A stretch of DNA of 64,000 nucleotides, taken from the NCBI GenBank assembly GCA_017881725.1, contig JADGQO010000026.1:5370-69369 (forward strand), read 5' to 3'. Each line of letters begins with the position of its first letter. The stretch's first letter is position 1. Below, piece after piece: positions 5,990-24,270 of this stretch. A model generated the notes under the pieces. The model made no database searches and was not told where the DNA came from. It was given only the letters and a program-made list of their open reading frames with translations. This DNA comes from Fibrobacteria bacterium (lineage in GTDB: Bacteria > Fibrobacterota > Fibrobacteria > UBA11236). The position numbers were made by a program, and so were the translations under genes.

Positions 5990-6013
5990 CCGAGTCAAAT
6001 CCAGGAGGCTATC

Positions 6014-6409
6014 ATCGCTACCCAAGAAAACTACCGGGCAACCGGCCGCCGTAAAACCGCCATCGCCCGCGTCATTCTGAAGCCCGGCACCGGCAAGCGC
6101 GTCATCAACGATCGCACCTTCACCGATTATTTCGCCAACGCCATCCGCGAAATGATCGTCGAACAGCCACTCACCATCCTCAATGCCAACAAGCAATGGG
6201 ACGTGATCGTGACCAGCACCGGTGGCGGCGTGAATGGACAAGCCGGAGCCGTGCGTTTGGGCATCGCCCGGGCCTTGGTCGCATACAAGGAAGAATTCCG
6301 CAAAGCCATGCGCGAACACGGTCTTCTGACCCGCGACTCGCGCGCGGTGGAACGCAAGAAGTATGGTAAGTCCGGCGCACGCCGCAGCTTCCAGTTCTCC
6401 AAGCGCTAA
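6014..6409 (+). CDS. rpsI: 30S ribosomal protein S9, apparent non-canonical ATC start
   Basis: [43 protein letters not shown]...QFSKR; SD AGGAGG at 6003-6008; no in-frame ATG/GTG/TTG before the conserved N-terminus. Confidence 0.97.
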
Positions 6410-6443
6410 TAGACTGGAAGAGAAAGAGAATAAAGGAATAAGC

Positions 6444-7193
6444 ATGCCAGTACCTGAAATCAAAGAGATGTTGGAAGCCGGAGTTCATTTTGGGCATCTC
6501 ACCAAGCGGTGGAATCCCAAGATGAAGAAATTCATCCTCACGGAAAAAAATGGGATCTACGTGATCGACCTGGCTAAGACCCAGGAAAGCCTGACCAAGG
6601 CCATTGAAGCCGTGAAACGCATTCGTCACGCCGGCAAATCCATTCTCTTCGTGGGTACCAAGAAGACCATTAAAGACTGCATGAAGGAAGAAGCCACGCG
6701 TTGCGGCATGTACTACGTGACCGAGCGCTGGTTGGGCGGCATGCTCACCAACTTCCAGACGGTTCGCAAATCCATCAAGCGTCTCGAGGAAATCGAGAAG
6801 ATGGAAACCGACGGCTTGTTCAAGGAAATTACCAAGAAGGAAGTGCTGTCCCTGAATAAGGAACGGGCCAAACTCGAGGGAATTTTCTCCGGCATCCGCC
6901 ATATGAAGACTTTGCCTGGCGCGCTTTTCGTGGTCGATTCCGAGCATGAGGAAATCGCCGTTCACGAAGCCAATCGCCTCCGCATTCCCGTCATCGCCAT
7001 TGTCGATACCAACAGCGATCCGGACAAGGTGGCCTTCCCCATTCCCGGCAACGACGACGCGATTAAATCCGTCGGTTTGTTGACCCGCGTGATTTCCGAT
7101 TCCATCGGCGCAGTTTCCGCTCCCCTGATTGTTGAGGAACCCAAGAACGGCGCCGCCCCTGCGATGGCGGAAGTGCTCGAAGGGGCCGAGTAA
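6444..7193 (+). CDS. rpsB: 30S ribosomal protein S2
   Basis: MLEAGVHFGH, WNPKM, RWLGGMLTN, PGNDDAIKS. Confidence 0.99.
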   Translation: MPVPEIKEMLEAGVHFGHLTKRWNPKMKKFILTEKNGIYVIDLAKTQESLTKAIEAVKRIRHAGKSILFVGTKKTIKDCMKEEATRCGMYYVTERWLGGMLTNFQTVRKSIKRLEEIEKMETDGLFKEITKKEVLSLNKERAKLEGIFSGIRHMKTLPGALFVVDSEHEEIAVHEANRLRIPVIAIVDTNSDPDKVAFPIPGNDDAIKSVGLLTRVISDSIGAVSAPLIVEEPKNGAAPAMAEVLEGAE

Positions 7194-8059
7194 TGGCAGA
7201 AGTTACTGCCCAAACGGTCGCTCAACTCCGGGAAAAAACCGGATTGGGCATCCTACAGTGCCAAAAAGCGCTGAAGGAAACCGCTGGAGACATGGAAAAA
7301 GCGATTGAGTTCCTGCGCAAGCAGGGCGCAGCCGTAGCCGCCAAGCGCATCGGTAAGGAAACCAAGGAAGGCAAGGTCATCCTCGCCGCAGGTTCGAATG
7401 CCGTTGCCGCAGTCGAAATCAATTGCGAAACCGATTTCGTTTCCGCTTCGGATGATTTCAACGCCTTTGCGTCGAAAGTCGCCCACGTAATTCTGGCGAA
7501 GCAGCCCGCCGACCCGGAAGCGCTGAAGGGCTTGCCCCTCGACGCCTCCACCGTGGGCGAAGCCAACACGGCCATTATCGCCAAAATCGGCGAATTAATC
7601 ACCGTCCGCCGCTTTTCACTGGAAAAGGTGGGACCGAACGAGCATGCCGAGACCTACTCGCACATGCAAGGGAAAATCGGCGTCATCCTCAAGCTCGGAT
7701 ATTCCGGGATTTTAAAAGATGCCGCAGCCTTATCCACCGTCGCCAAGGATTTGGCCATGCAGGTTGCCGCGAGCATGCCCATTGCCATCGAACCCAAAGA
7801 CATTTCCGCGTCCATCGTGGACAAGGAACGCGAAATCGCCCGGGAGCTGACCCTTAAGGAAGGCAAAACCGGCGATGTCGTGGATAAAATCGTGGAAGGC
7901 AAAGTAGCGAAGTTCTACAAAGAGAACTGCTTGGTGAACCAGGTTTTCATCAAGGACAGCAAACTCAGCGTCGACAAACTACTTGTCAACACAGCCAAGG
8001 CTTTAGGCCTGGAGTCCCTGAAGGTTCTCGCCTTCCACCGGCTGCAATTGGGTCAGTAG
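7193..8059 (+). CDS. tsf: Elongation factor Ts
   Basis: [23 protein letters not shown]; follows rpsB with a TAATG overlap. Confidence 0.98.
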
Positions 8060-8063
8060 CCCG

Positions 8064-8786
8064 ATGTCCGGTTTACGGTACAAACGAATCCTCCTCAAGC
8101 TCAGCGGGGAGGCTTTCGCTGGCGACAAAGACGGCGGCATCGACCCCGAAACCATCCGCTCCATAGCCGAAGAAGTCGCGCAAGTCTATCATAGCGGCGT
8201 CCAGATGGGCATCGTCATCGGTGGCGGAAACATCATCCGCGGAGCCACCCTCAGTCAGTTCGGTTTTGACCGCGTTTCGGCGGATCAGATGGGCATGCTG
8301 GCGACTGTCATCAATTGCCTGGCCATGCAAGATGCTCTCGAAAAACAAGGCATCTCCACGCGTGTCATGAGCGCAATCAAAATGTCGGCCTTGGCGGAAT
8401 TTTACATTCGGCGTCGCGCCGTGCGACATCTTGAAAAAGGCCGAATCACTCTGTTTGCCGCCGGCACCGGAAACCCTTACTTCACCACCGACAGCGCCGC
8501 CACCTTGCGCGCCATCGAAACCGAATGCGATATCATCATGAAAGCCACCAACGTGGATGGCATTTATGATAAGGATCCCAACAAGCATAAGGATGCGGTG
8601 AAATACGAATCCATTACTTATACCGAAGCCATCAACCGCCAGTTAAAGGTGATGGATACATCGGCCTTCGCGCTTTGCCGCGAGAATAATATTCCGATCT
8701 TGGTCTTTGACATGGGCGTCCACGGCAATTTGGCCAAAGCCGCACTGGGCGAAAAAATCGGAACCTTGGTCAATAGCGGAGAGTAA
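8064..8786 (+). CDS. pyrH: UMP kinase
   Basis: [37 protein letters not shown]. Confidence 0.98.
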
Positions 8787-8790
8787 TCCC

Positions 8791-9339
8791 ATGGACGAAA
8801 AAGCCATCAAGGATCACATGCAAAAGACGGTGGATAACGTCCGGCGCGACCTTGCGAAAATCCGTACCGGCATGGCCTCGCCCTCCATTCTCGATAACGT
8901 TTATATCGACTATTACGGCACCCGGACACCCATCAGCCAGGCGGCCGCCATTTCCGTTCCCGAGCCACGCTGCCTGGCCATCAAGCCTTGGGACAAGGGA
9001 TTGATGCAAGCCATCGAGAAGGCGATTCAAACCAGCGATATCGGAATTAATCCGGTGAACGACGGTACCTATATTCGCCTCAATATGCCCGTGCTTACGG
9101 GCGAGCGGCGCAAGGAGCTGGCCAAGGTCGCCAAGCGGATCGGCGAAGAAGGCAAGGTCGCCATCCGCAATATCCGCCGCGACGAGAATGAGCATTTGAA
9201 AAAAGCCTCCAAGGACGAAGGCAAATCGGAAGATGAGCTGAAGGGCGAGATGGACAAGGTCCAACAAATCACCGATCGGTTCATCGTGGAAGTGGACAAG
9301 GTAATCGCCGAAAAAGAAAAGGACATTCTCACCGTCTGA
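8791..9339 (+). CDS. frr: Ribosome recycling factor
   Basis: IRTGMASP, DYYGTRTPI, ERRKELAK, AIRNIRRD. Confidence 0.98.
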   Translation: MDEKAIKDHMQKTVDNVRRDLAKIRTGMASPSILDNVYIDYYGTRTPISQAAAISVPEPRCLAIKPWDKGLMQAIEKAIQTSDIGINPVNDGTYIRLNMPVLTGERRKELAKVAKRIGEEGKVAIRNIRRDENEHLKKASKDEGKSEDELKGEMDKVQQITDRFIVEVDKVIAEKEKDILTV

Positions 9340-10203: not shown

Positions 10204-11028
10204 ATGTCCAACTTGGCCGTGCGCATCCTATCGGCCGTGGTTTTAGGAGTCGTGGGGTTTTCCGCCCTGGTACTCGACGTGCGCAGTCGTTGGGCCATCG
10301 TGGCCCTGGCCTTGGCGTTGGGAGCCTGGGAGTTTTCCCGCATGATATCGGCCAAATTTTCCGGACCTCGCGTCGCCGCGCTTACCGCCGTCTTGACTTT
10401 GATCTGCGTCCTCCCCCATTATCCGGGGATCCATTTGCCCTTCGCCGTCCACTGGACCGAACTGATAATAGTGGTTGCCTTTTTGGGACTTACTCTGATT
10501 GGTTTCCGCTACGTGGACATCTCGGGCTTGGCGCCATGGTTATACCTGCAGATTTTTTCAGTCGCGTATTTCGGCATCTATGCGGCGGCGTTGTTCGGTT
10601 TACTCAGGTCCGAGTCCGGATGGTCCGGCATCTTCCCCCTCTTGTTGACGCAGGCCGCCATCGCCATGGCGGATACCGGTGCTTACGCCACAGGCCGCGC
10701 GTTTGGAAAGCATAAGTTGTGCCCCTCCATCAGTTCGGGAAAAACGATTGAGGGCGCGATCGGCGGAGCGATTTTGACGACGGCCCTGGTGGCTTGGATC
10801 GGCCCTAAATGCGTCGGCGGAGGTTTGCTATCCAATATCGGATTGGGAGTCGTGCTGTCCATCACCGCCATTCTAGGCGATCTTTTCATATCCATCCTGA
10901 AACGGTATACCGGCACCAAGGACTCTTCGCATTTGATCCCGGGTCATGGAGGCGTACTGGATCGATTCGATTCGCTCTTCTTTTCCGCTCCGGCCGCCCT
11001 GCTTTATTTGCACCTGGTCCAAGCCTGA
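10204..11028 (+). CDS. cdsA: Phosphatidate cytidylyltransferase
   Basis: Polytopic membrane protein; DTGAY, SSGKTIEG, GDLFIS..KR..GTKDS..IPGHGGVLDRFDS. Confidence 0.96.
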   Translation: MSNLAVRILSAVVLGVVGFSALVLDVRSRWAIVALALALGAWEFSRMISAKFSGPRVAALTAVLTLICVLPHYPGIHLPFAVHWTELIIVVAFLGLTLIGFRYVDISGLAPWLYLQIFSVAYFGIYAAALFGLLRSESGWSGIFPLLLTQAAIAMADTGAYATGRAFGKHKLCPSISSGKTIEGAIGGAILTTALVAWIGPKCVGGGLLSNIGLGVVLSITAILGDLFISILKRYTGTKDSSHLIPGHGGVLDRFDSLFFSAPAALLYLHLVQA

Positions 11029-11040
11029 ATCCAAGCCCGG

Positions 11041-11532
11041 TTATTGGCTTCTTCGAAAAATGATGGGTTGATCGTTTTCTACGACCGTCCAGGCCCCGGC
11101 TTTCACATTGATGGGCTTTTCCCTGGTCAACGGCGCGCGGCATCCCGAAGTATCGTTCAATTGGTAGGCGGGCGGATCGCGGTACTGGCATAGCGTCTTG
11201 GCGCTGATCATTTTTCCGTCCGTTACCGACCATGTCCCATATTCATGGCTGAGCTCCACATAGTCGTTGGGGGCGGGAACTCCCGTCGCCGTGCGATAGG
11301 ATAAGAGCATGGTATGGTCCGAATCGACCTCCATCGTCACCTTGATGTCCGCGGGAGGCGTAGTCGTTGTGATGGGGATGTTTGTGCGCCAAATGCCGAC
11401 CACCGTTGCTTCTGTGGCCGGCTCATTGGGCACAGCCTTGGACGAGGATTGGGTCAATTGCGATAAATCACACCCGTTAAGAATCAAAGTTACGGCTGCG
11501 CCTGTTATGAAAATCCGCCCGAATCCCAACAT
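11041..11532 (-). CDS. Hypothetical lipoprotein (beta-rich)
   Basis: Hydrophobic leader with lipobox LILNG-C; VVGIW lipocalin-like motif. Confidence 0.6.
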   Translation of the reverse strand: MLGFGRIFITGAAVTLILNGCDLSQLTQSSSKAVPNEPATEATVVGIWRTNIPITTTTPPADIKVTMEVDSDHTMLLSYRTATGVPAPNDYVELSHEYGTWSVTDGKMISAKTLCQYRDPPAYQLNDTSGCRAPLTREKPINVKAGAWTVVENDQPIIFRRSQ

Positions 11533-11744
11533 AGTCGTCCACCTTTCGTCTCCATGCCTATTCCGATCCAGGAAGAGGACCTTCTTTTACCGATCGAATT
11601 CTAGCACGCGGAGCAAAGATTCAACAAGCGCCGGGGCGCCGGAGTTTTTGAGGAAGAACCGGAGGTTTTACTCACAATCCTTGCGCTCCGATGGGATGGG
11701 CAATACAATGAGGGGGGCCTGGAGAACGGGCAGGGACGGCCAAG

Positions 11745-14021
11745 TTGCGCAAATCAGGGCATTTACGAAATTGGAAATTTCTTTTGGCGGCGTATTGTCT
11801 ACTGTCGCCTAACTGGGTTCATGGCGCCGGCGTGGATTTGGACAGCCTTTCCCTGAAGCGCTTGATGGATTTGGACGTCACTTCGGTTTCCAAGCGCGCC
11901 CAAAAAGTACGGGATGTCGCGACTTCGATTTACGTCATCACGCAGGACGATATTCGCCGATCCGGGGCCACGCGTATTCAAGATGCACTGAAGCTGGCTC
12001 CCGGGGTTTGGGTGGATGAGGCCAGTTACACCATCACCGGTGAAGGCATCCGCAATTCCGCATTCGCCTTTTCCAGTTCCCTCCTTTGGATACTCGATGG
12101 CGTGCCGATGACGGATCCCATTATCGGAGGCGTGTTCTTCAACGCGCTTGACCTTCCCCTGGAAGACATCGATCGCATCGAAATCATCAAGGGGCCGGGA
12201 GGCAGCATTTACGGAGCGAATGCGGCCACGGGCATCGTGAGCATCTTCACGAAAAGCGGAGAGGCGTCCGAAGGATTGAAAGCGTCCTTGTCGGGCGGAA
12301 CCCAAAATTACCTGGCTCCGTATTTTCGATATGGCTTCGAGGCGCGGCCGGATTTTTTCGTGACCGTTTGGGCCCGTTTGAAAACCCATGACGGTTACCG
12401 TCGCAACCCGCTCTTCGCCGGAGACAGCCTGTGGGCGCCCATCAACGGCAGCGGGGACGTGAGGACTGCCAACCAATTCCGCGGGGTCGACGATTACCAG
12501 CGCGCGCAATCCGGCGGCTTGAAATGGGACTACCAGCCGGGTGAGAAATGGAAATGGTCCGGACAAATCCGGGATATGCATGTGAATGACGGACAATACT
12601 CCATCCAATTGACGCCCTATCCCGACTCCGCCCCGGCCACGCCGGGTGTTGTCAAAGCGCCGGACAGCGTCTATGCCAACCGCGAGGCCATGGATCAATT
12701 GGTGATACAAACCCGATTCGACGGCAGCCTCGGCACGGACAACAATTATTTCTTATCCACGTACCATTGGCGTTACCGGTATGACGTGGCTTTGGCCAGC
12801 GGATTCCTGGCGGGATTCGACATCACGGAAGTGGAAGCGCAGGACAATTTGAAATACGGCCGCCACAACGTCAGCGCCGGAGCGAATTTCCGCAGGGTCC
12901 AATACGAATTCCGCGATTTGCGGGCGACGGGATCCATCATCGTCCAAGAGCCCGACTATTTGGCTTTTTTGGCCGGCGCCTTCCTGCAGGACGAAATGGA
13001 ATTCGGCCCGCGTTGGCGTTTAACCGCCGGGGCCAAGGCGGAAACGTGGACGCCGCTGGGTTGGGTCCCGGAAATTTCCCCAAGTCTGAGGCTGGCCTTC
13101 AAGCCGAATAACGATCAAACGTGGTGGGCGGCGGCATCGCGCGGAGTCACGACCCCGGCCAACTCCCAGCGGGACATGGAGGTGCGCGTCTCGCAACTCC
13201 CGCCCACGTGGCAAAAGTGGGTATGGGGCGCGCAACCTCCGCCCGGCGCGGGAAAATGGGTGGCCCTGGTTTCCGGAGATGAGGTTCCCGTTAACTATTA
13301 CACCCTGGAATGCGGCCAACGGGGATCTTGGAAGCAGCGCGTCCAATGGGACGTCAGCGGATTTTATAGCTGGGTACGCGGGCAAATCGGCCTGACTCCC
13401 GTGGATCCGACGTTTCAAACCGTTATCGCTTCCAAGGGCAACCCATCCGACTCGCTGGTTCCCTTATACAATGCCAATCTCGACGACGAGGAAACCTTCG
13501 GCGGGGAAGCTTGGCTTCGCCTATTGCCGATGGAGGCTCTGCGGATGGAGTTCTCCTATTCTCTTTTTTGGGTTTACAATTTCGTCGGATACCCTATTCC
13601 CAATGACCCGGGCGGCCGCACGTTTCCGAGGCCCGATGAATTTAATCGTCAGACCCCCAATCATGTCCTGCGCGCCCGCGCGAATTGCGTTCTGCCTTTC
13701 GAAACCGGCTTGAACGTCAACGGCATCGTATCGTCCCCCTTCTCGCGCGGCGAGGCCTTTAATTACGCCCTGCAACGTCCCGTCTCCCAAACCGGACGCT
13801 TTTTTGCGAATCAGGCGGTTATAGCCGATGCCCCAAGGTGGCAGTTCCAAATGGATGTTTCCTTGGAAAAAAAATTCCTCGCCGATCGCCTTACCGTGAC
13901 CGCGTGGGGGCGCAATCTTTTGGCGGATCCGTTCGTGGAGGTCTTTAACCAATACGGTTGGATCAGTTATCCCCACCAAATCTATCGCACTTTTGGCATT
14001 AACCTGTCGTACCAACCTTGA
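11745..14021 (+). CDS. TonB-dependent receptor
   Basis: Plug region LSLKRLMDLDVTSVSKR...VITQDDIRRSGA, DIDRIEIIKGPGGSIYGANAATG; C-terminal GRNL...FGINLSYQP beta-strand. Confidence 0.93.
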   Translation: MRKSGHLRNWKFLLAAYCLLSPNWVHGAGVDLDSLSLKRLMDLDVTSVSKRAQKVRDVATSIYVITQDDIRRSGATRIQDALKLAPGVWVDEASYTITGEGIRNSAFAFSSSLLWILDGVPMTDPIIGGVFFNALDLPLEDIDRIEIIKGPGGSIYGANAATGIVSIFTKSGEASEGLKASLSGGTQNYLAPYFRYGFEARPDFFVTVWARLKTHDGYRRNPLFAGDSLWAPINGSGDVRTANQFRGVDDYQRAQSGGLKWDYQPGEKWKWSGQIRDMHVNDGQYSIQLTPYPDSAPATPGVVKAPDSVYANREAMDQLVIQTRFDGSLGTDNNYFLSTYHWRYRYDVALASGFLAGFDITEVEAQDNLKYGRHNVSAGANFRRVQYEFRDLRATGSIIVQEPDYLAFLAGAFLQDEMEFGPRWRLTAGAKAETWTPLGWVPEISPSLRLAFKPNNDQTWWAAASRGVTTPANSQRDMEVRVSQLPPTWQKWVWGAQPPPGAGKWVALVSGDEVPVNYYTLECGQRGSWKQRVQWDVSGFYSWVRGQIGLTPVDPTFQTVIASKGNPSDSLVPLYNANLDDEETFGGEAWLRLLPMEALRMEFSYSLFWVYNFVGYPIPNDPGGRTFPRPDEFNRQTPNHVLRARANCVLPFETGLNVNGIVSSPFSRGEAFNYALQRPVSQTGRFFANQAVIADAPRWQFQMDVSLEKKFLADRLTVTAWGRNLLADPFVEVFNQYGWISYPHQIYRTFGINLSYQP

Positions 14022-14145
14022 AAGGCTTAAATTCACAATGCCCACGCCGACCGCGAGCAAAGATTTCCTTGCACTTTTCAAACCTCACCCATTACAATGG
14101 AAAGGGTTTAGAAATCCCGCTTGATCTCCTTTTGATGGGAAAGCC

Positions 14146-14682
14146 ATGAGTCCGAACGACCCGATTGTAGACGCGCTCTACGAAATGGTGCGATCCTTCG
14201 AGGGCTGCGTCACCTGGGCCATTCGCGCCATATTGGAAACCGAAACCAAACCCGCCTTGCCTTTCCGCGTGACAGCCTCCTTTCCGGAACCGCAATCGCT
14301 TTTTTGCATCCTCCCTGCCGGCAGCGCGAACTTCCATTCCCAGATTATTATCGGCGTCGAGGAAGCCGACTTGCCGGCGATTTTTCCGAGCGAAGTGGAC
14401 CCCAAAATCCGCAGGGACGCCGTGGGCGAAATGGCGAACGTAATATCCGGCTTATTCGTGGCCGACGATATTTTCATTTCCCGTTTCGGCTATTTGAAAC
14501 CGTCCTCGCCGTTTTTCAGCGACGGCCCGTTCACGGCGCGCAAGGACTGGAGCATTGAAGGCAACGTCGAGGCCAACGGCAAACTGATTCACTTGCATTT
14601 CAGCATTCGCCCCATCGAGGATATCCGTGAAACATCGAACCTGCGGGGAAAAAATCCGGAAAAATCCGGGACGAAGCCATGA
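14146..14682 (+). CDS. CheX/CheC-like phosphatase
   Basis: DAVGEMANVISG matches the ExxN CheC/CheX motif; overlaps the receiver gene (ATGA). Confidence 0.75.
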   Translation: MSPNDPIVDALYEMVRSFEGCVTWAIRAILETETKPALPFRVTASFPEPQSLFCILPAGSANFHSQIIIGVEEADLPAIFPSEVDPKIRRDAVGEMANVISGLFVADDIFISRFGYLKPSSPFFSDGPFTARKDWSIEGNVEANGKLIHLHFSIRPIEDIRETSNLRGKNPEKSGTKP

Positions 14683-15062
14683 TTAAACGCATTGTGATCA
14701 TCGACGACTCGTTGTTCCTCATCAAACAGTTGACGGCATTCTTCGAAGCCGTGATGGGATATCAGGTCGTGGCCGCCGGCGCGGACGGCACCCAGGCGCT
14801 GGAACTTTACCGGAAGCATAAACCGGATCTCATGACCCTGGATATCACCATGCCGAACAAGGACGGGGTGGAAGCCCTAGCCGAAATCCTCGCCGCCGAT
14901 CCAAATGCGCGGGTGATGATTATTTCCGCCGTGCGCGGCCCGGAAATGACGCGCTGCCTGGCCTTGGGCGCGCGGGGCTACATGGCAAAGCCCCTTCTGT
15001 TCAGCGACGATCAATTCGTGCGTGAATTCCGGGAGTCTCTGGAAGATATTTTCGGCCCCTGA
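14679..15062 (+). CDS. Single-domain response regulator (CheY-like)
   Basis: IIDDS, TLDITMP (phospho-Asp), ISA, KP. Confidence 0.93.
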   Translation: MIKRIVIIDDSLFLIKQLTAFFEAVMGYQVVAAGADGTQALELYRKHKPDLMTLDITMPNKDGVEALAEILAADPNARVMIISAVRGPEMTRCLALGARGYMAKPLLFSDDQFVREFRESLEDIFGP

Positions 15063-15064
15063 AT

Positions 15065-17428
15065 TCAGTCGTGAAGGCCGGACGGCAACCTGAGCGTAAT
15101 CCGGGCGCCTTGGCCCGGCAACGAATCCACATCGACTGTTCCGCCCCGCTCCTCGGCCCACTTCACCACGGCATGCATCCCCACGCCCCGTCCGGAAATC
15201 TCCGTGGCCGAATCCCGGGTCGAAAAACCGGGGAGGAAAATCAACTTTTGCCGATCGGATTCGCCCAATCGGGACAAGGTCTCGACGGAAACCAATCCCT
15301 TTGCCAACGCCTGGGAAGCCACGTGGTCGGGATCGATGCCTGCGCCATCATCGCTTACAGTCACGTCTAAGTTACCCTGCCGTTCCTCGATGCGGATCGT
15401 AATTTTTCCGCAAGGGCTTTTGCCCAACGCCGACCGCTCCGCATCCGTTTCGATGCCATGATCGGCCGCGTTGCGGATCATATGCACCAAGGGTTCGTCC
15501 AAGGCGGCGAACATTCGCGGAGAAATTTCCAATCCCTCCGGTTCCACTTTCAGCTCCAAGCGCTTGCCCAGGGATTCTCCCAGGCGCCCCACCATGCGGC
15601 GGTATTTTTCCGCCCATCTCCCCAAAGGGATGGAATCGAGGTCGCGACAGGCGCGTAGCAGCCTGCGAAGCCCGTCATCCCCGCCCGTTCCAGAGCCTAA
15701 AACCGATGCGGAGGTTTTGGGTTCCAAGGCCCGCGCTAGCGCGCGCAACTCCGCAAGCCGGTGGTCCGCGATGGAAACCGCGTCGGGACCTCCCCGCGCC
15801 ATTTCCCCGCGCAAACCCAGGAGGCGAGACTGTTCCGAACGCATATCCATCAGGAAGGCCTGGAATCCGGACCAGGGATTCGTGTCCATACTCCCGCCGG
15901 GCCGCGCGACCAGCCACTCTTCCGCCATCCTCATGACGCGCGCAAGCGCCTCGAACCCATAAGTCGCGGAGGTCCCTTTCAAGGTGTGCAGATCGCGGGA
16001 CAACGACTGGACGAGGCTACGATAAGCGCCGACCTCCGCCGTCGATAAGCTATCCGCCGCCACGCTCATACGTTGAATCCGCTCCTCCAAATCGTCCAGG
16101 AATTCGGGAATGGATTCACCATACCGTACCATGCCCAGAATGGCTTTCACCTCGTCTTCATGACGCTGTTTCTGATCGCGGATTGCCTGCTCCACGCGCC
16201 TGGACTCGGTGACGTCCTGCACCAGGATCATCAGTTTCTCCAACCTTTCGTCGTGATTCAACATTTTCTGGTAACCCACGATAACCGTGCGTTCGCGGCC
16301 GTCGGCGCCGTCCAAGCGCAATTCGCGCACCGGACATACCCGCAAAATCTTTTCCCAACGGAGCGACCGGTGTTTGGACTTCACCATTGCGAACCAGTCC
16401 ATCCACTCGGACAGGGCCGCCGCATCCAAATGCAGCAGCTCCGCAAGCGACTTTTTGGAGACGTCTGCGACGCCCAGAACGGCATTGGTGGACAGGGCGT
16501 AATCCGGATTCACTTTTCCATCCAAACCGATGGTGAACAATCCCTGCTCGATATGATCGAGAATATCCTTGATTTCCCGAATCTTGTCCTGGACCATCTC
16601 CTCCAGGCGCTCCGTGTAATCCTTTACCGTCCGGCGCATGGAATCGAAATCCGCCGCCAGGAGCGCGATTTCATCTTCTCCGGTAACCTCCAGGGGACGG
16701 GCGTAGTCGCCGCGCGCGATGGCGTTGGCCGCTGTCTGCAAAGCTTCGATGGGGCGCGTGATGCGCTTGGCCTGCCGCCTGGCAGCCAAGTAAGCCAGCC
16801 CAATGGCGAGGGTGCCCAACATAACCAATGCGCCCAACATTTTAACGAGGGATTGCCGGGCCTCCGCTGCCGCCGCCGCGATGGCGTTTTCCATGAGCGC
16901 CGTGGTAAGTCCGTAGCGTACCGAGCCCATACGACGGCCATCCACCATGACCGGCGCCGCGAATTCATAAACGTCAACGCCGGCGGTATGCGACCACCGG
17001 TGAGTCGCGCCGGGTACCGAAGAGGCCCAAATGCTTAGGGAATCCTCCAAGAAGTAGGCGGACTTGACCAAGCCGTCCGGGTGCAGCGAATCGGCGAAAG
17101 CCCACGGCCTCCTTCTTTCGTCCATGTAGATTCCGTAAACAATGTCACGGTCCGAGGAGACGGTATTGGCAATAATCGACGCGACTCCAGAGAAGGAATT
17201 GTCGCCGACCATGCCCGACAACGCGAGCGCATTATTCGCGGCCAGCATCTGGCCTTTGGCTAGGAGTGTATTGCGGATGGATGAGACCGCCGCCGCCTTT
17301 TGACGTTGGGATAAGGACACATTGAGCAATATGACGATGGCCAGGAACCCGATCAAGGTGGAGGCCAGCACCGTGACGGAGCTGACCAGCAACTTCCGCT
17401 CGATGCCTTGGCCGGGACGGGCGCTCAT
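15065..17428 (-). CDS. Membrane-bound CheA-like histidine kinase (TM-periplasmic-TM-HAMP-PAS-Hpt-HATPase; no CheW domain)
   Basis: Two TM helices; HAMP RPIEALQ...DEIALLAADFDSM; Hpt DLHTLKG; CheA-type HMIRNAADHGIE and SGRGVGM; ends immediately after the ATPase domain. Confidence 0.88.
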   Translation of the reverse strand: MSARPGQGIERKLLVSSVTVLASTLIGFLAIVILLNVSLSQRQKAAAVSSIRNTLLAKGQMLAANNALALSGMVGDNSFSGVASIIANTVSSDRDIVYGIYMDERRRPWAFADSLHPDGLVKSAYFLEDSLSIWASSVPGATHRWSHTAGVDVYEFAAPVMVDGRRMGSVRYGLTTALMENAIAAAAAEARQSLVKMLGALVMLGTLAIGLAYLAARRQAKRITRPIEALQTAANAIARGDYARPLEVTGEDEIALLAADFDSMRRTVKDYTERLEEMVQDKIREIKDILDHIEQGLFTIGLDGKVNPDYALSTNAVLGVADVSKKSLAELLHLDAAALSEWMDWFAMVKSKHRSLRWEKILRVCPVRELRLDGADGRERTVIVGYQKMLNHDERLEKLMILVQDVTESRRVEQAIRDQKQRHEDEVKAILGMVRYGESIPEFLDDLEERIQRMSVAADSLSTAEVGAYRSLVQSLSRDLHTLKGTSATYGFEALARVMRMAEEWLVARPGGSMDTNPWSGFQAFLMDMRSEQSRLLGLRGEMARGGPDAVSIADHRLAELRALARALEPKTSASVLGSGTGGDDGLRRLLRACRDLDSIPLGRWAEKYRRMVGRLGESLGKRLELKVEPEGLEISPRMFAALDEPLVHMIRNAADHGIETDAERSALGKSPCGKITIRIEERQGNLDVTVSDDGAGIDPDHVASQALAKGLVSVETLSRLGESDRQKLIFLPGFSTRDSATEISGRGVGMHAVVKWAEERGGTVDVDSLPGQGARITLRLPSGLHD

Positions 17429-18414
17429 CGCAACACCTTGTCGATTTCCACCAGGGCCTCATCCCGGATGGAGGCGACCTTACGCGCCTGCGGCAAGTTC
17501 AGGATTTTATACACCGCCAACGGCTGCTCCAACCGGGTCGAATCGGGCGCTTCCCAATCCGCCGCTTTGAGGCGCAGGATAATTCCGGCGGTCTGGACTC
17601 CCAGCGCATAATGGTCGGGCAGCAAGGCGAAAGTTCCAAAACTCACGGCGGACGTCACCAGATTTTCCACTCCGACCACCACGGGTTTACGGAAATGCTC
17701 CAAGGCGGGCAGCCATCCGCCCGCGATGATTTCCGGAGTGAGGAGAAAATTGTCGTTGAGAATCCACAGCGCGTCGACGTCCTGATCCAGGCGCAAGCGG
17801 CGCAATCCCCGGCGCACGGCCAGGGAAGGATCTTGCCCGGCCTCGGGAATTTCAAAGGCCAGCAACTGGATGTTTTCTGACTGGCACCATTTGGCGTTCT
17901 CCTTAACGAAGTCGCGCATGGACGGCCGCGCCAGCACGCCGACCTTCCGCACCGGTGAGGACAAGATGGATCGCAAATTCATGACCGTAGTGACCGCCGG
18001 AACCTCGTAGAAAATCCCCGTCATGCGGGCCATGCCGGCGATGGCCCTATCCACACGGACGGCCATGAGAGCCACGCCCGGCGGGGGCGGCAGGGAATCG
18101 CGCCAAAGCTTCTGGACCTGGGCATAAAGTTGAATGGCCTGATTGTCCATGAGCACGACGGCCTTGCAATGGGCGAGGTGGATCTCATTCGCGACCGCGG
18201 CGGCATCGTCTCCGGCCGCCAGCAGGCGCGCGTGTGTTTCGAATTCCAGCCCCAGTTCATGGACCAACCCATTCGCCGCTTCGTCGAAGTGGATGCCGGA
18301 CGGACGCAGGATCAGGATGGAATCGGAACCATTGGCGATGGCCGCCAAGCACACGGCCATGATTAAAGTTCGGCATGTCCAGGGACCGTGCCGTTGTCGG
18401 GAATTCATTTCCAT
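17425..18414 (-). CDS. Periplasmic ABC substrate-binding-like protein
   Basis: Signal peptide; alpha/beta pattern VDALWILND, KPVVVG, GVQTA, ILNL resembling ABC_sub_bind; no permease nearby; overlaps the kinase start. Confidence 0.65.
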   Translation of the reverse strand: MEMNSRQRHGPWTCRTLIMAVCLAAIANGSDSILILRPSGIHFDEAANGLVHELGLEFETHARLLAAGDDAAAVANEIHLAHCKAVVLMDNQAIQLYAQVQKLWRDSLPPPPGVALMAVRVDRAIAGMARMTGIFYEVPAVTTVMNLRSILSSPVRKVGVLARPSMRDFVKENAKWCQSENIQLLAFEIPEAGQDPSLAVRRGLRRLRLDQDVDALWILNDNFLLTPEIIAGGWLPALEHFRKPVVVGVENLVTSAVSFGTFALLPDHYALGVQTAGIILRLKAADWEAPDSTRLEQPLAVYKILNLPQARKVASIRDEALVEIDKVLR

Positions 18415-19118
18415 CCGTCCACCCCCAGCATCCGTAGGCTACCGGCGTCCAAATGCCGCCATTGCATCAGCATTTCCTTGGCATCGAAGCCTTCGCGCAC
18501 GGCCAGGGCCGTCAGCGTCACTTGGCCCTTTTCCAATCGGGAAGCCGTCAATTTTTCCTGGGACTTCCTTTGCAGTTCCGCCATGTTGGATTCGGAAACC
18601 AATACCGCGTCCACGGAATGGAAAATGAGCAGCGGAAGCAAATCCTCGACCTTGGTCACGCGGTTTAACCGGGGCGTTCCGCCCACCAACCCATTAATGA
18701 AAGCCCCCATCTCCGCCCGCTCCAAAATGCCGACAACGCCGATTTCCAATTTCGAGACGCGACCCATATCAACGGGCTTCTCCAAGGACAGGAGCACGAA
18801 GTTTTCCGTCGTTGATCCATTCCGAACGCCTTGCAGGCGAGAAGCGTAACCTCGGAATGGGCCGAGCACCATGCCGGGAGCGACGAGTATTTCCGGCTTT
18901 TCCTGCGCGACCTGGGCTTCTAAATCCGCCAGCCGCGCGAAAACGGTGATTTCCAATCCGGGACAATTACGGGCCAGCGACTCTTGAATCGCCAAAGGCC
19001 GGGCCAGCGAGGGGTAATACACATAGACTTTGCCGCCACCGGGGGACGGCTTTCCCGCCATAGCCACGATCAAAACCAGGGACAAAATCGCGCGCGCCTT
19101 AAGCCGGACTTTCACCAT
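18405..19118 (-). CDS. Exported periplasmic-binding-fold-like hypothetical protein
   Basis: Signal peptide; SD GGGAGG before ATG at 19118; RVTKVEDLLPLL...VDAVLV segment; coupled to the downstream gene. Confidence 0.55.
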   Translation of the reverse strand: MVKVRLKARAILSLVLIVAMAGKPSPGGGKVYVYYPSLARPLAIQESLARNCPGLEITVFARLADLEAQVAQEKPEILVAPGMVLGPFRGYASRLQGVRNGSTTENFVLLSLEKPVDMGRVSKLEIGVVGILERAEMGAFINGLVGGTPRLNRVTKVEDLLPLLIFHSVDAVLVSESNMAELQRKSQEKLTASRLEKGQVTLTALAVREGFDAKEMLMQWRHLDAGSLRMLGVDGWK

Positions 19119-19302
19119 AACCTCCCGAAGAATCCATCCCATGGACCTCCCGCGCCAGCCCCATTCCATCCCGGCGTCTCATGTCTCGGACCGATTATAG
19201 CACGCGCCGACGCCGCCGGGCATGGATTGGGTCGACAATTACGGGATATGCCCCGGAAACCTTGGTATAATCGCAATCAGGGATTTTTTATATTGACCTC
19301 GG

Positions 19303-20565
19303 ATGAATAAGAAACGCATCGCCTTGCTCGGCGCCACCGGTTCGATTGGAATGGCCGCCCTAAAGGTGATCCGCCAGCATCCCGATCGGTTCCAGTTGGT
19401 GAGCGTCGCCGCCGGCAGACAATGGGACAAGCTCCTCCCCGTCATCCAGGAATTCAATCTCGGTAAAGCCTGCCTGTGGGAAGAGGCTGCGGCCGCTGAA
19501 TTGCGCCGACACACTGCGGCGAAAGTTTTTTCCGGCATGGACGGCCTGTTGGAATTATGCGCCGACGCGGATGTGGATTTCGTCTTGAACGGTTTGGTGG
19601 GGGCCATCGGCTGCCGTCCAACCCTGGAGGCGATTCGCCACGGGAAGCATGTCGGACTCGCGAACAAGGAAACCATGGTCATGGCCGGAGCCATCATCAA
19701 TGAGGCTTTGAGTCGTCATCCGGAAAGCCGCATGATTCCGATCGATTCGGAGCATTCCGCGATTTTCCAATGCTTGGCCGGGCGACCTGTTTCCGAAGTG
19801 GAACATATCGAATTGACCGCGTCCGGCGGCCCGTTCCGTGAGCGCCCGCAAGCGACCTTCGCGACCATCACAAAATCGGACGCCCTGAAACATCCCACTT
19901 GGAAGATGGGCGCCAAAATCACCATCGACTCCGCGACCCTGATGAACAAAGGGCTGGAAGTCATCGAAGCGCATTATCTCTTCGGCATGGATTTCAATCG
20001 CATCAAGGTGACCATCCACCCCACTTCCATCATCCACAGTTTCGTGCAATTCCGCGACGGCTCACTTATGGCCCAACTCGGTTGCCCCGATATGCAATTG
20101 CCCATCCAATACGCGATGACCTACCCCGAACGCTGGTCCCTGGACGTCGAACGCTTGGACTTGGCCAAGGTGGCCAAATTGGAATTCTTCCCTCCGGATT
20201 TCGAAAAATTTCCCTGCCTGGGTTTAGCCTACCGGGCCGGATCTTTGGGCGGTACGGCCCCGGCCGTTCTCAACGCCGCCAACGAAGCCGTAGTCGCCAG
20301 GTTTTTGGAAGAGTCCATCGCCTTCACGGACATACCCATCATTTTAAGCCAGGTTTTGGAACAAGCGGCCCTATCGGGACAATCAGCCCAAACGGCCAGG
20401 ACCGATACCCATGCTGTGCATGGCCTTGCAAGCAAGGCTTCGCAACCAACCTTGGACGATGTGCTGAAGGCCGACGCCTGGGCGCGCGCCGAAGCGGAAA
20501 AAATCATGTCGCGGGGAATCGGAAAAACCGCCGTCTCCCCTGCGGCCAAAGTCGGAAATCGATAG
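19303..20565 (+). CDS. dxr: 1-deoxy-D-xylulose 5-phosphate reductoisomerase
   Basis: LGATGSIG, LANKE, PIDSEHSAIFQ, HPTWKMGAKITIDSATLMNKGLE. Confidence 0.99.
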   Translation: MNKKRIALLGATGSIGMAALKVIRQHPDRFQLVSVAAGRQWDKLLPVIQEFNLGKACLWEEAAAAELRRHTAAKVFSGMDGLLELCADADVDFVLNGLVGAIGCRPTLEAIRHGKHVGLANKETMVMAGAIINEALSRHPESRMIPIDSEHSAIFQCLAGRPVSEVEHIELTASGGPFRERPQATFATITKSDALKHPTWKMGAKITIDSATLMNKGLEVIEAHYLFGMDFNRIKVTIHPTSIIHSFVQFRDGSLMAQLGCPDMQLPIQYAMTYPERWSLDVERLDLAKVAKLEFFPPDFEKFPCLGLAYRAGSLGGTAPAVLNAANEAVVARFLEESIAFTDIPIILSQVLEQAALSGQSAQTARTDTHAVHGLASKASQPTLDDVLKADAWARAEAEKIMSRGIGKTAVSPAAKVGNR

Positions 20566-23322: not shown

Positions 23323-24270
23323 ATGACTGACCCCAACGGTCCGGAACGTTCCTCTCGCTCCGGTTTTCTCCGCAGCCGTTCCCGCCCTCGACTGAGGTCG
23401 ATCATTTTCACTTGCGTCGTGGTGGTGACTCTCCCCTTCCAAACCACCTGGTCTAGAGCCCAAACCGCTCCCGCAACCCCGTCTCAAACCGCAAAACCTG
23501 TTCTGGTCGAAAAGCGCAAAGTCACTCATTCACCCACCACCTTAAAAACCGAATTCGAACCCATTGCGAGTCCAAAGGACTCCCTGCCCGTTCCCTTGCG
23601 AAAGCTGGACCAAAAAGCCTTGCAGGCGCCGGAAAAACTGCTTTTCGACATCATTTGGGGGGGATGGAGTTTCAGTTGGATCAATGCCGGGCAAGCCACG
23701 CTGGAATTGTTGCCCACGGATAAACCCTATCAGTGGAAAATCCAATCGCTGGCCCGCGGAAACAGTTTTTTCCAATCTTTTTATCCGGTTCAAGATACCG
23801 TCGCGTCCATCATTGATGCCCGGGGAATTTACCCCGTCCGTTTCGAAAAACATTTGCATGAGGGCACTTATAATGCCCATATAACGGCCTCGTATGACCA
23901 AAATTTGCATGTATTGCGCACCCAGGATACCTCGTTATCGATAGACCCCTTTACCCATGACGTCTTGTCCGCTTTTTATTTCATCCGCACCCAAAAGCTG
24001 AAAGTCGGCGACAGTCTGGAATTGGCCGCCGTTTCCGGAAAGAAGAAATACAATCTCAAAGTGCTTTGCCATGGACGGGAGGACGTCGAGGTTCCCGCAG
24101 GCAAGTTCCATACCCTGGTGGTTGAACCGGTTTTAAAAGAAGACGGCCTTTTCAAAGCCAAGGGTAAATTGACGATTTGGGTAACCGACGACGAAGCGCA
24201 TATGCCCGTCAAAATGCAGAGCAAAATCCCCGTCGGATCCATAAAAGCCGAACTGGTTTCCAAGGGATAA
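23323..24270 (+). CDS. DUF3108-like exported protein
   Basis: AGQATL, DVLSAFYFIR, VPAGKF, IWVTDDEAHMPVK..SKIPVGSI pattern. Confidence 0.75.
   Translation: MTDPNGPERSSRSGFLRSRSRPRLRSIIFTCVVVVTLPFQTTWSRAQTAPATPSQTAKPVLVEKRKVTHSPTTLKTEFEPIASPKDSLPVPLRKLDQKALQAPEKLLFDIIWGGWSFSWINAGQATLELLPTDKPYQWKIQSLARGNSFFQSFYPVQDTVASIIDARGIYPVRFEKHLHEGTYNAHITASYDQNLHVLRTQDTSLSIDPFTHDVLSAFYFIRTQKLKVGDSLELAAVSGKKKYNLKVLCHGREDVEVPAGKFHTLVVEPVLKEDGLFKAKGKLTIWVTDDEAHMPVKMQSKIPVGSIKAELVSKG

Follow-up and report, generated by a model that had tools for sequence, protein, structure and literature searches.

Judged from its sequence, the conserved gene set described here is most likely a signalling route that starts at an outer-membrane receptor and leads over two periplasmic binding proteins to a chemotaxis-type kinase. 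It lies in a stretch of 64,000 nucleotides (the window) from a permafrost Fibrobacterota genome, where open reading frames and domain searches place seven genes between cdsA (10204-11028) and dxr (19303-20565). These are listed in Table 1, together with the abbreviations that we use for them.

Table 1. Genes of the locus between cdsA and dxr, with their positions in the window
Gene product	Position	Strand	Description
Lipoprotein-like ORF	11041-11532	-	163 aa; LNGC lipobox; divergent from TBDR
TBDR (TonB-dependent receptor)	11745-14021	+	758 aa; Plug and barrel, signal peptide
CheX-like phosphatase candidate	14146-14682	+	178 aa; D91-x3-E95-x2-N98 ... P122 motif
CheY-like single-domain receiver	14679-15062	+	127 aa; Response_reg
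Membrane sensor kinase	15065-17428	-	787 aa; HAMP, Hpt, HATPase_c
SBPL (large periplasmic binding-like protein)	17425-18414	-	329 aa; predicted distant PF04392 (ABC_sub_bind) relative
SBPS (small periplasmic binding-like protein)	18405-19169	-	237-254 aa by start choice; signal peptide; predicted PhnD/AioX-like fold

The reading frames of the TBDR, CheX-like protein, receiver, kinase, SBPL and SBPS are as the initial annotation described them, and its limits need adjustment. Its end at 19118 is an internal methionine with a clean signal peptide, and the SBPS frame extends further, to 19169; its start at 11041 is the end of the lipoprotein-like ORF, which it did not include. The genes were said to form two convergent units 2 nt apart (15062/15065) with overlapping starts and stops, and this can be read directly from the junctions. 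The receiver stop (15060-15062) faces the kinase stop (15065-15067), an ATGA is common to the cheX-like and receiver genes and another to the SBPL and kinase genes, and where SBPS meets SBPL, stop and start overlap by 4 or 10 nt, according to the methionine chosen. The direct neighbours of the SBPS-SBPL pair in the window are the kinase gene and dxr. A scan for promoters and terminators was uninformative (no sigma70-like site was found where 4.0 were expected by chance, and the 12 terminator-like sites equal the expectation of 11.7). Also as annotated, domain searches found no MCP, CheW, CheR, CheB, permease, ECF sigma factor or FecR between cdsA and dxr, and FecR-like and ECF sigma genes were not found elsewhere in the window either.

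The plug and 22-strand barrel expected of a TonB-dependent receptor are both recognised in the TBDR (Plug PF07715, 1.5e-19; barrel PF00593, 2.3e-13). They are the only domains that Pfam finds in it, with no STN signalling domain. Its N-terminal motif is LSLKRLMDLDVTSVSK, and a motif of the same kind can be seen by eye in nearly all of 33 linked TBDR ORFs, of which a strict regular expression caught one. Against NF053590, the NCBIfam model for the TOL_0244 TBDR, the protein scores 232 bits, below the curated threshold of 645. None of 12 other linked TBDRs scores above this cut-off (best 240 bits), and all 12 match the profile from positions 1-5, which is the conserved N-terminal segment. A link between such receptors and YfiR-like proteins had been mentioned in the initial annotation; the names of the models NF053590 and NF053592 fit it, but neither of our binding proteins is YfiR-like. 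Exact-phrase searches of open-access text found no literature joining 'YfiR-like' or DUF4154 with TonB.

The lipoprotein-like ORF beside the receptor is a clade-specific accessory. It has no Pfam or NCBIfam family, and a homologue adjoins the TBDR in four loci of other genomes (L006, L007, L008 and L011). The gene is present in 8 of 10 genomes of the same genus and in 1 of 15 other searched genomes of the family, and it often shares a contig with SBPS in those genomes.

SBPS belongs to a protein family that has no Pfam or NCBIfam model. At E values up to 10 it matches no family of either database, PF12974 and YfiR/DUF4154 included, and none of 63 homologues carries a Pfam domain. Among 1.84 billion representatives, 594 match SBPS at E<=0.001. 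Its predicted structure (AF2, pLDDT 92.5) has the two-lobe class II binding-protein fold, nearest to PhnD, PtxB and AioX. The top 27 structural matches (VIA rows) are all of the PhnD/PtxB/HtxB/AioX/ArrX/BstB/XAC2383 type, with Z 13.9-16.8 and 203-211 residues aligned at an rmsd of 3.0-3.5, and the next rows have Z of about 13. An endonuclease matched by the SBPS profile among PDB sequences at 0.036, which is chance level, was rejected as a relative.

SBPL appears to be a distant relative of PF04392 (ABC_sub_bind). The window protein itself has no match in Pfam or NCBIfam at E values up to 10, YfiR/DUF4154 included, but 7 of 37 aligned homologues match PF04392 (best 1.7e-8), and the SBPL profile finds binding proteins of the 5z6v type (0.003) and the PF04392 structure 3lft (0.009) in the PDB. 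Single-sequence searches of the PDB gave nothing meaningful for SBPL or SBPS. No fusion of the two was seen among 87 SBPL-like proteins (180-576 aa) or the 150 SBPS representatives listed.

The kinase begins with a transmembrane segment (TM), an sCache-like periplasmic domain (residues ~38-196) and a second TM, followed by HAMP, a PAS-like domain, an Hpt domain with H481, a linker and a CheA-type ATPase. Pfam places HAMP at 220-268, Hpt at 442-516 (7.6e-9) and HATPase_c at 645-783 (9.8e-18), and NCBIfam models of the CheA type align to residues 588-784. The two databases agree with the initial description of a sensor-fused, CheA-type kinase without a CheW domain. The PAS domain that had also been proposed is missed by Pfam but appears in the AF2 model of residues 1-440 (pLDDT 87) as PAS-like strands at 296-405. 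The best Foldseek match of this model is a WalK model (1.2e-21), and the top Atlas match of residues 38-196 is sCache_3_2. The part from TM2 to HAMP matches NF053592 ('HK near YfiR-like protein', NCBIfam) at 1.9e-8, with a score of 34 against a cut-off of 194.

Measured against the domains of CheA, the sequence of the kinase has P1, an Hpt domain with a phosphorylatable histidine, and P4, with its N, G1 and G2 boxes. The ATP-binding residues H649, N653, H657, G658, DDGxG (693-697) and SGRGVGM (745-751) are present; all 21 kinase sequences keep H481, within HTLKG, and the residues of the N, G1 and G2 boxes without change, and the ATPase domain is 38-46% identical to canonical CheA. With an E limit of 10, no P3 dimerisation domain (PF02895, H-kinase_dim) is recognised; the canonical CheAs among the homologues listed do carry P3. 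By eye, residues ~545-640 resemble the P3-P4 junction. P2 is lacking, and P5/CheW finds no match, the protein ending at residue 787 directly past the ATPase. The 20 other kinases of the alignment likewise have no CheW domain and end at this point. Exact-phrase searches of open-access text, from which absence in print does not follow, found nothing on sensor-fused CheA without P5. The name 'class III histidine kinases', which had been given to such proteins, finds no support, as the phrase matches listed all concern fungal class III kinases.

The receiver is CheY-like, as had been proposed, with the complete residue set D9, D10, D55, S83, Y101 and K104-P105 and a Response_reg match of 4.6e-22 in Pfam. 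NCBIfam matches it best with its models for the CheB receiver and CheY, and the score stays under the cut-off of each (CheY 76 against 200). The receiver and its three close paralogues in the genome (49-53% identity) all adjoin a CheA-type kinase without P5, and the next best receiver in the genome is only 37% identical.

The 178-residue protein had been called CheX-like, and the evidence for this comes from its active site and from profile searches. The CheX motif is D/S-x3-E-x2-N-x22-P. D91 is present in the window protein, and all 16 homologues keep G94, E95, N98 and P122. P122 lies 24 residues past N98, one more than the spacing of the motif, and we counted the motif as present; a paralogue in the same genome (L004) matches the spacing exactly. 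Against Pfam CheX (PF13690) the protein scores 14.7 bits, below the gathering threshold of 27 (E=0.033), and relatives reach 6.2e-4 (L005) and 1e-6 (L048), still at or below threshold. The four best PDB matches of the profile are all CheX (E 0.12-0.3), and 26 of 30 Atlas matches lie within the CheX set.

The linkage between these genes is not due to chance. This genome has three copies of the set, one in the window and two paralogous ones, each with a gene order of its own. Every copy comprises a TBDR, SBPS, SBPL, a sensor-fused kinase of the Hpt/CheA type, a receiver and a CheX-like protein; in one paralogous set (L005) all genes are on one strand. For other genomes, SBPS patterns served to select 52 loci, in which homologues of the window proteins were then sought by phmmer (E<=1e-4). 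All 52 hold SBPS by selection and say nothing on parts without SBPS, and because the loci are mutually related their counts overstate independent support. The loci were counted by phmmer, and iterated HMMs for the sensor and Hpt parts were dropped; these were unspecific because they included HAMP. The loci come from Fibrobacterota, KSB1, Gammaproteobacteria and Myxococcota. SBPL is adjacent to SBPS in 49 of the 52, and the three misses end 74-270 nt after SBPS. The distances of the two proteins correlate with r 0.96, which may reflect shared descent alone. A homologous sensor domain is found in 38 loci and a TBDR in 29, either in 45 and both in 22. For the 27 loci whose flanks reach 8 kb or more on each side, these counts are 27 for SBPL, 22 for the sensor, 20 for the TBDR, 16 for both and 26 for either. 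The sensor domain was thus not found in 5 of these 27. The receptor is not obligatory either, since no TBDR was found within 10 kb in 7 loci, among them an entire subgroup of Fibrobacterota (L013, L017, L021). The island between cdsA and dxr is itself shared with three other loci (L006, L008, L011), and its dxr side with three more (L007, L009, L010). Co-occurrence had been named beforehand as the test by which the idea that the two convergent halves belong together could fail, and this recurrence, within the genome and across four phyla, bears the idea out.

The combination of TBDR, SBPS, SBPL and sCache-HAMP sensor forms an input unit that stays constant while the transmitter varies, although the TBDR itself can be missing. 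Of the 25 loci with a CheA-type sensor, 19 have a single-domain receiver (<=200 aa), as do 2 of the 13 with another transmitter. CheX-like genes are found in 13 of the 52 loci, 10 of which also have a CheA-type sensor. In some loci of Myxococcota there are also Peripla_BP_6 and SBP_bac_1 or Peripla_BP_4 proteins, an addition that fits a scaffold or multi-ligand model as well as a simple relay. Exact-phrase searches of open-access text, which do not imply absence in print, found no literature on the gene set apart from the Pah paper discussed below.

On balance, we think that the locus probably encodes a three-tier envelope sensor feeding a small chemotaxis-type phosphorelay. What we observe, and build this reading on, is which genes are present, the domains and folds assigned to their products, catalytic motifs that are intact and a linkage that recurs; all the binding steps, the ligand, the direction of the response and the target of the CheY are what we infer, as is the fast, non-transcriptional output that had been proposed initially. 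The TBDR would bind and admit an external ligand. The co-translated SBPS (PhnD/AioX-like) and SBPL (PF04392-like) would take up the ligand, or the state of the receptor, in the periplasm, and the pair would dock on the sCache-like periplasmic domain of the kinase. The signal would then travel via HAMP and the PAS-like domain to the CheA-type transmitter, leading to autophosphorylation on H481 of the Hpt domain. From H481 the phosphoryl group would move to D55 of the receiver, and the CheX-like protein would remove it. Because no component has a DNA-binding domain, the output would go through protein contacts, with the flagellar motor as the likeliest target. This flagellated organism encodes flagellins (5 matches), a FliM N-terminus, 7 MCPs and 4 canonical CheA-CheW kinases.

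More tentatively, TBDR, SBPS, SBPL and the sCache-HAMP sensor might be a portable 'outer-membrane-to-kinase' input device for varied transmitters, which in Fibrobacterota, some Myxococcota and some Gammaproteobacteria drives an array-independent mini-chemotaxis whose parts are a CheA without P5, a dedicated CheY and CheX. Between receptor and kinase, the pair of binding proteins would then act as a heterodimeric shuttle. If this were true, cells could steer towards substrates that enter only through TonB-dependent receptors, such as glycans and other bulky, scarce nutrients.

A rather unlikely alternative is that nothing needs to be imported, and that the periplasmic face of the TBDR captures or releases the binding proteins, which hold the kinase on or off as regulators and not as ligand carriers. 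This face would consist of the N-terminal LSLxxLLNxEV...SK segment, which includes the TonB box. YfiB-YfiR-YfiN is regulated by sequestration of that kind. The match of all 12 scanned linked TBDRs to NF053590 from the conserved N-terminal segment speaks for such a relay, as does the match of the NCBI 'HK near YfiR-like protein' model to the TM2-HAMP part of the kinase, and the unrelated additional binding-protein families in Myxococcota loci would suit a scaffold. A further point in its favour is that the affinity between PahS and PahP shifts 30-40-fold with ligand order, as PMC10570129 reports. Against it, the two binding proteins match neither YfiR/DUF4154 nor any other NCBIfam model even at E up to 10, SBPS retains both lobes of a complete PhnD-like fold, a type known to bind small ligands, and the TBDR is absent from the 7 full-flank loci given above.

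We consider it improbable that SBPS and SBPL work in uptake with an ABC or other importer whose genes lie elsewhere, with the TBDR and the binding proteins primarily a nutrient route and the kinase monitoring the loaded binding protein. Such monitoring has precedents in Tar with MBP and ChiS with CBP, and the paralogous set on contig C8 adjoins GH67 and GH129/CBM genes. Binding proteins with a dual use are also common, according to PMC8050422. But membership of an ABC transporter had been named beforehand as a second way in which the initial idea could fail, and our searches came out in favour of that idea: the two proteins are predicted to have binding-protein folds, and no permease or importer ATPase adjoins SBPS-SBPL in the window or is found among the flanking ORFs scanned. 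A binding-protein-dependent permease was found in none of 54 flanking ORFs from 12 loci (54 of 110 candidates, scanned with Pfam), and the lone ABC ATPase among them is CcmA, with CcmB and CcmC (L018). A Walker/LSGGQ motif proxy picked out 2 ORFs, both more than 7 kb away; it missed CcmA and is hence insensitive. Furthermore, a search with the PF04392 model found no other gene of this type in the genome, which is 90% complete.

That the convergent units TBDR-cheX-cheY and SBPS-SBPL-kinase are unrelated and were joined by an insertion accident between cdsA and dxr is very improbable and already disfavoured, for although they lie on opposite strands, the TBDR is inconstant (29 of 52 loci) and the TBDR of L011 sits at the opposite end of the island, one genome has the six families together in three gene orders, once on a single strand, other phyla have them again, and the receiver paralogues track P5-less kinases in four of four cases.

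The sensing of substrates that porins exclude is understood mainly for FecA/ECF-sigma and Bacteroides Sus-type systems. To these, work on the Pah system in 2023 added a route from TBDR to binding protein to kinase for one ligand class (PMC10570129). Our results place the same input logic in Fibrobacterota, KSB1, Myxococcota and marine Gammaproteobacteria, with an obligatory second binding protein of an unnamed family, and suggest that this input can also feed a kinase of the chemotaxis type without a receptor-coupling domain. A defined six-gene set with three copies in one genome offers a handle on both the relay and the role of a CheA without CheW.

Several known systems share single features with the locus. 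WalK (with YycH/YycI) has a comparable input of extracytoplasmic PAS/Cache, HAMP and cytoplasmic PAS, as far as the kinase model predicts. XAC2383 of Xanthomonas citri is a PhnD-like periplasmic protein and a close structural match of SBPS (Z 15.4); its partner in XAC2383-XAC2382 is a membrane diguanylate cyclase. Unlike the window locus, both systems use other transmitters and have no outer-membrane receptor. In FecA-FecR-FecI an outer-membrane TBDR also starts a signal that reaches the cytoplasm, but here the TBDR has no STN domain, the window no FecR-like anti-sigma factor or ECF sigma factor, and the relay would use soluble binding proteins and a kinase. The layout of a TBDR, a periplasmic accessory and a HAMP kinase is shared with the systems behind NF053590, which the TBDR resembles in its N-terminus and plug, and NF053592. 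The window proteins score far under both cut-offs, however, the periplasmic part of the kinase does not match NF053592, and the accessories are predicted to have binding-protein folds and are not YfiR-like. With the CheA-CheY-CheX core of Thermotoga and Borrelia (CheX structure PDB 1xko) the locus has in common the HTLKG-type Hpt domain, the N, G1 and G2 boxes of CheA, the D-D-D-S-Y-K set of the receiver and the E-x2-N ... P motif of CheX. It differs in that the kinase has no P2, no P3 detectable with Pfam and no P5/CheW and the island no MCP or CheW; since the sensor is fused to the kinase, the input bypasses a receptor array.

A signalling PhnD-like binding protein (PF12974) paired with an sCache-like kinase is also found in AioX-AioS-AioR for arsenite and ArrX-ArrS for arsenate, as described in PMC8050422. 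In structure, AioX and ArrX rank with the best matches to SBPS (Z 14.9-15.9), although SBPS has no sequence match to PF12974, their family, and unlike the window these systems have no outer-membrane receptor and no second binding protein. Their kinase is of the classical HisKA type and works with a sigma54-type regulator.

The closest known system is PahS/PahP/PahK/PahR of Cycloclasticus sp. P1, for which sensing from TBDR to binding protein to kinase was first demonstrated experimentally, with PahS-PahP and PahP-PahK binding measured and modulated by the ligand (Wang et al., iScience 2023, PMC10570129). Compared by layout and size, both have an adjacent TBDR (687 aa in Pah), a binding protein without a transporter (318 aa in Pah, near the length of SBPL) and a membrane kinase (771 aa in Pah). 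The Pah system has one binding protein and our locus has two, and the relay does not explain the need for a pair. The Pah kinase pairs with a GacA-type DNA-binding regulator encoded elsewhere, in place of the CheA-type transmitter with CheY-like and CheX-like proteins, and its ligands are PAHs in a gammaproteobacterial, not a Fibrobacterota, host. The description of the locus as an uncharacterised system was therefore too broad: the principle of a relay from TBDR to binding protein to kinase is already known, and what is new is a variant with a second binding protein and a CheA-type transmitter.

The window corresponds to contig C115 in a Fibrobacterota assembly of 5.2 Mb and 90% completeness, and the sequencing runs matching it are solely DNA runs of one permafrost metagenome. 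The island sits within a housekeeping gene row, with rplM-rpsB-tsf-pyrH-frr-uppS-cdsA on one side and dxr-rseP-purD on the other. The same placement between cdsA and dxr is found in L006, L008 and L011, three of the numbered loci that we fetched from other genomes with patterns of the small binding-like protein, and the dxr side is visible in L007, L009 and L010. The gene layout described in the initial annotation is correct, as we could confirm by reading the ORFs and junctions directly, and the island indeed lacks an MCP, CheW, CheR, CheB, permease, ECF sigma factor and FecR. ATGA overlaps join cheX to the receiver gene and the large binding-like protein (SBPL) to the kinase, the small binding-like protein (SBPS) overlaps SBPL by 4 or 10 nt, and the receiver and kinase genes converge with exactly 2 nt between their stops. 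Further along, the window carries a type VI secretion (T6SS) effector region (27476-53516), which also includes two DUF2169 genes and several ORFs without a family.

Features of the island and of the rest of the window
Feature	Position	Strand	Basis or context
Lipoprotein-like ORF	11041-11532	-	ORF call
TonB-dependent receptor (TBDR)	11745-14021	+	Plug + barrel
CheX-like protein, 178 aa	14146-14682	+	Conserved motif, profile matches
Receiver, 127 aa	14679-15062	+	CheY residue set
Kinase, 787 aa	15065-17428	-	HAMP, Hpt, HATPase_c
SBPL, 329 aa	17425-18414	-	Homologues match PF04392
SBPS, 237-254 aa	18405-19169	-	AF2 fold
DUF3108 protein	23323-24270		
Ser/Thr protein kinase with Big_2 + PEGA domains, 704 aa	25185-27299	-	
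ClpV-like AAA+ protein	27476-30349		T6SS effector region
VgrG	30561-32675		T6SS effector region
RHS-repeat protein	36196-39600		T6SS effector region
Transposase fragment	43774-44298		T6SS effector region
PAAR protein	48973-50067		T6SS effector region

The best-supported reading of the island, and in our view a probable one, is a three-tier relay from the TBDR through SBPS and SBPL to a sensor kinase of the CheA type and on to a CheY-like receiver reset by the CheX-like protein. The TBDR would admit or report an external ligand, and the two binding-like proteins would bring the ligand information to the sCache-like domain of the kinase. HAMP and the PAS-like domain may then switch the CheA-type transmitter, so that a phosphoryl group could pass from H481 to D55 of the dedicated receiver, which the CheX-like protein would reset. 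The organism has five flagellin matches, a FliM N-terminus at a contig end, seven MCPs and four canonical CheA-CheW kinases, and motility is therefore possible as the output.

The kinase combines HAMP, Hpt and HATPase_c domains and its C-terminus falls just past the ATPase; a domain search found no match to the P2, P3 (dimerisation) or P5 (CheW-like receptor-coupling) models of CheA. In the AF2 model of residues 1-440 (32-row alignment, pLDDT 87) a long helix leads to an sCache-like periplasmic domain of five strands, after which come TM2-HAMP, a PAS-like domain (strands in 296-405) and a helix leading into Hpt. Foldseek pairs this structure best with a WalK model (1.2e-21, 451 columns), and in the Atlas residues 38-196 fall closest to sCache_3_2. 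When the transmitter (residues 430-787) is used as the query, the 21 best relatives, the protein itself set aside, cover 81-100% of it. Precomputed domains show HAMP with Hpt in 19 of them and HATPase_c in 19. The rows below are nearly all canonical CheAs, which match about half of the query (the ATPase) with 38-46% identity. An alignment of 21 relatives shows no variation at H481 (within HTLKG) or in the N, G1 and G2 boxes of CheA type. One protein of 1346 aa (P0347) carries the same Hpt and CheA-type ATPase transmitter, 35% identical over 99% of residues 430-787, fused to a periplasmic Reg_prop/Y_Y_Y sensor of the type known from Bacteroides hybrid two-component glycan sensors. The initial annotation had called sensor-fused CheA-like kinases class III histidine kinases, a label that the literature did not support; the 10 papers listed, of 48 matching the phrase, all deal with fungal kinases.

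The TBDR consists of plug and barrel only, and a domain scan detected no STN signalling domain. Its top NCBIfam model is that of the TOL_0244 TBDR (NF053590), where it scores 232 bits and the cut-off is 645. We scanned 12 further linked TBDRs; each matches this model starting within its first five positions, and all stay below the cut-off. Judged by eye, nearly all of the 33 linked TBDR ORFs have an N-terminal segment resembling LSLxxLLNxEVxxxSK. The receiver has the complete CheY residue set (D9, D10, D55, S83, Y101 and K104-P105). Despite missing the Pfam CheX threshold (E=0.033), the 178-aa protein is by its sequence features a divergent CheX-like protein, because all 16 homologues share G94, E95, N98 and P122, the four top matches of a PDB profile search are all CheX (weak, E 0.12-0.3) and the CheX set accounts for 26 of its 30 Atlas neighbours.

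Neither Pfam nor NCBIfam has a model that SBPS matches at E up to 10, and the 63 homologues retrieved by a word search are likewise free of Pfam domains. Its AF2 model (pLDDT 92.5) has a class II binding-protein fold, and the 27 best VIA rows (Z 13.9-16.8, with the following rows at about 13) form a single structural group comprising BstB, PtxB, HtxB, PhnD, ArrX, AioX, XAC2383, PA3383 and GpxB; a table in an eLife paper assigns nine such PhnD/AioX-group proteins to PF12974. A full HMMER scan with SBPS retrieved 594 representatives at E<=0.001 out of 1.84 billion, and the best 150 of these 594 are 168-310 aa long. The SBPL of the window has no family match of its own; PF04392 is matched by 7 of 37 aligned homologues (best 1.7e-8), and the SBPL profile reaches PF04392-type structures with E 0.003-0.009. 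These proteins might instead act by occupancy or sequestration in the style of YfiBNR, relaying without import, which we regard as rather unlikely. It seems more improbable still that they chiefly serve an importer encoded elsewhere. In the window the SBPS-SBPL pair is flanked by the kinase and dxr, and a Pfam scan of 54 flanking ORFs from 12 loci (the nearest to the set among 110 candidates) found no binding-protein-dependent permease; the sole ABC ATPase was CcmA, alongside CcmB and CcmC. The PF04392 model found no other gene in the 90%-complete genome. In four Myxococcota loci (L038, L039, L048 and L054), extra transporter-less binding proteins bracket the TBDR beside SBPS-SBPL, namely Peripla_BP_6 together with SBP_bac_1/8 or Peripla_BP_4, so that a set can hold as many as four SBP-like genes.

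The three-tier relay can also be considered in the light of the recurrence of its genes. Scanning with patterns from the SBPS alignment gave 52 confirmed loci from 79 matched stretches. By record title these are 17 Fibrobacterota, 1 KSB1, 6 Gammaproteobacteria, 3 unspecified Pseudomonadota, 21 Myxococcota or 'Deltaproteobacteria', 3 named only 'bacterium' and 1 Bifidobacteriales; the gammaproteobacterial loci include Aliikangiella, Colwellia, Colwelliaceae, Oleiphilaceae and Pleionea. The locus labelled 'uncultured Bifidobacteriales' (L011) is probably mis-binned: it has the complete island of Fibrobacterota type between dxr and cdsA, its proteins being 44-46% identical, and the bin label looks wrong. 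Screening by phmmer with the window proteins (E<=1e-4) placed SBPL next to SBPS in 49 of 52 loci, and the three exceptions end 74-270 nt past SBPS. The sensor domain occurs in 38 loci and a TBDR in 29; 22 loci have the two together and 45 have at least one of them. In the 27 loci with flanks of 8 kb or more on either side, SBPL is present in 27, the sensor in 22, a TBDR in 20, sensor and TBDR together in 16 and at least one of the two in 26; L033 has neither sensor nor TBDR. These linkage counts are not independent trials because the loci are kin and were chosen for SBPS. That two unrelated operons lie adjacent by chance is very hard to credit beside this recurrence. In the phylum sample, whose tallies include the unpublished genome G194, SBPS occurs in 52 of 201 genomes and 25 of 61 genera, including 8 of 9 genomes of its own genus. 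One Fibrobacterota family (f3) yielded none in 78 genomes searched, and another (f14) has it in 24 of 46.

Across the loci the input is constant and the transmitter variable. A Pfam scan of 26 locus proteins included 19 sensor proteins with a homologous N-terminal sensor region, and their transmitters fall into three groups: Hpt with CheA-type ATPase (Fibrobacterota and some Myxococcota), GAF with Hpt and ATPase (four gammaproteobacterial loci), and classical HisKA-HATPase-REC(-Hpt) hybrids or plain kinases (KSB1, Colwellia and Myxococcota). Of the 25 loci whose sensor is of the CheA type, 19 contain a single-domain receiver, compared to 2 of the 13 that have another transmitter. In 13 loci there is a CheX-like gene, and 10 of these also have a CheA-type sensor; Pfam adds one CheX in L048 and two in L024. 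One Fibrobacterota subgroup has a second, apparently soluble kinase of about 700 aa directly upstream of SBPS (L013:7869-9992, + strand; L021:15422-17494, - strand), in which an N-terminal CheX domain (Pfam 1e-5) is fused to Hpt and CheA-type ATPase. In an Oleiphilaceae locus (L024:3902-11589), SBPS and SBPL are accompanied by a TBDR, a sensor of GAF-Hpt-ATPase composition, a receiver, two proteins with CheX domains, a 252-aa stub of an MCP signalling domain and an ORF of 132 aa. In L013 (14055-15353) and L022 (11881-13086), too, the set has an MCPsignal protein at its flank.

The organism's own genome holds three full gene sets. On contig C8 (L005) the order on one strand is CheX-like, receiver, kinase, SBPS, SBPL and TBDR; on contig C150 (L004) kinase, SBPS and SBPL are convergent with the CheX-like and receiver genes and divergent from the TBDR. 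The C8 set is flanked, at L005:1978-4935 and 13218-15578, by genes for a GH129/CBM_4_9 protein and for a GH67 alpha-glucuronidase, which hints at a plant glycan as the ligand of this copy. In the C150 set (L004:5407-8969) the CheX-like gene (8076-8564) is very divergent, and the receiver is at 8580-8969; the opposite strand nearby has a FapA-family protein (5407-7404) and an ORF that weakly resembles a receiver (7394-7846). Contig C55 (265-6017) has a fourth trio without a sensor, made up of a CheX-like protein (265-834), a receiver (4078-4470) 50% identical to that of the window, and a soluble PAS-Hpt-CheA-type ATPase kinase with no TM, HAMP or CheW. The four receivers are mutually 49-53% identical, and the next best receiver reaches 37%.

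We consider the finding to be real, conserved and coherent. An exact-phrase search of open-access text found no paper on this gene set, and the terms TonB, CheA and ABC_sub_bind are absent from a 2021 review of binding proteins in signalling (PMC8050422). The principle of a TBDR acting through a binding protein on a kinase is already published, because work on the Pah sensing system of Cycloclasticus sp. P1 shows such a complex. There, three neighbouring genes code for PahS, a TBDR of 687 aa (Q91_0827), PahP, a binding protein of 318 aa (Q91_0826), and PahK, a kinase of 771 aa (Q91_0825). The three proteins co-immunoprecipitate as one complex with the GacA-type regulator PahR, and by SPR the PahS-PahP and PahP-PahK binding depends on PAH (Wang et al., iScience 2023, PMC10570129). 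We draw the parallel from gene layout and the published description. Compared to Pah, what is new is the obligatory second binding protein, from an unnamed PhnD-like family and translationally coupled to a PF04392-like one, the wiring of the input to a CheA-type kinase that lacks CheW and has a CheY and a CheX of its own, and the presence of three copies of the set in one Fibrobacterota genome.
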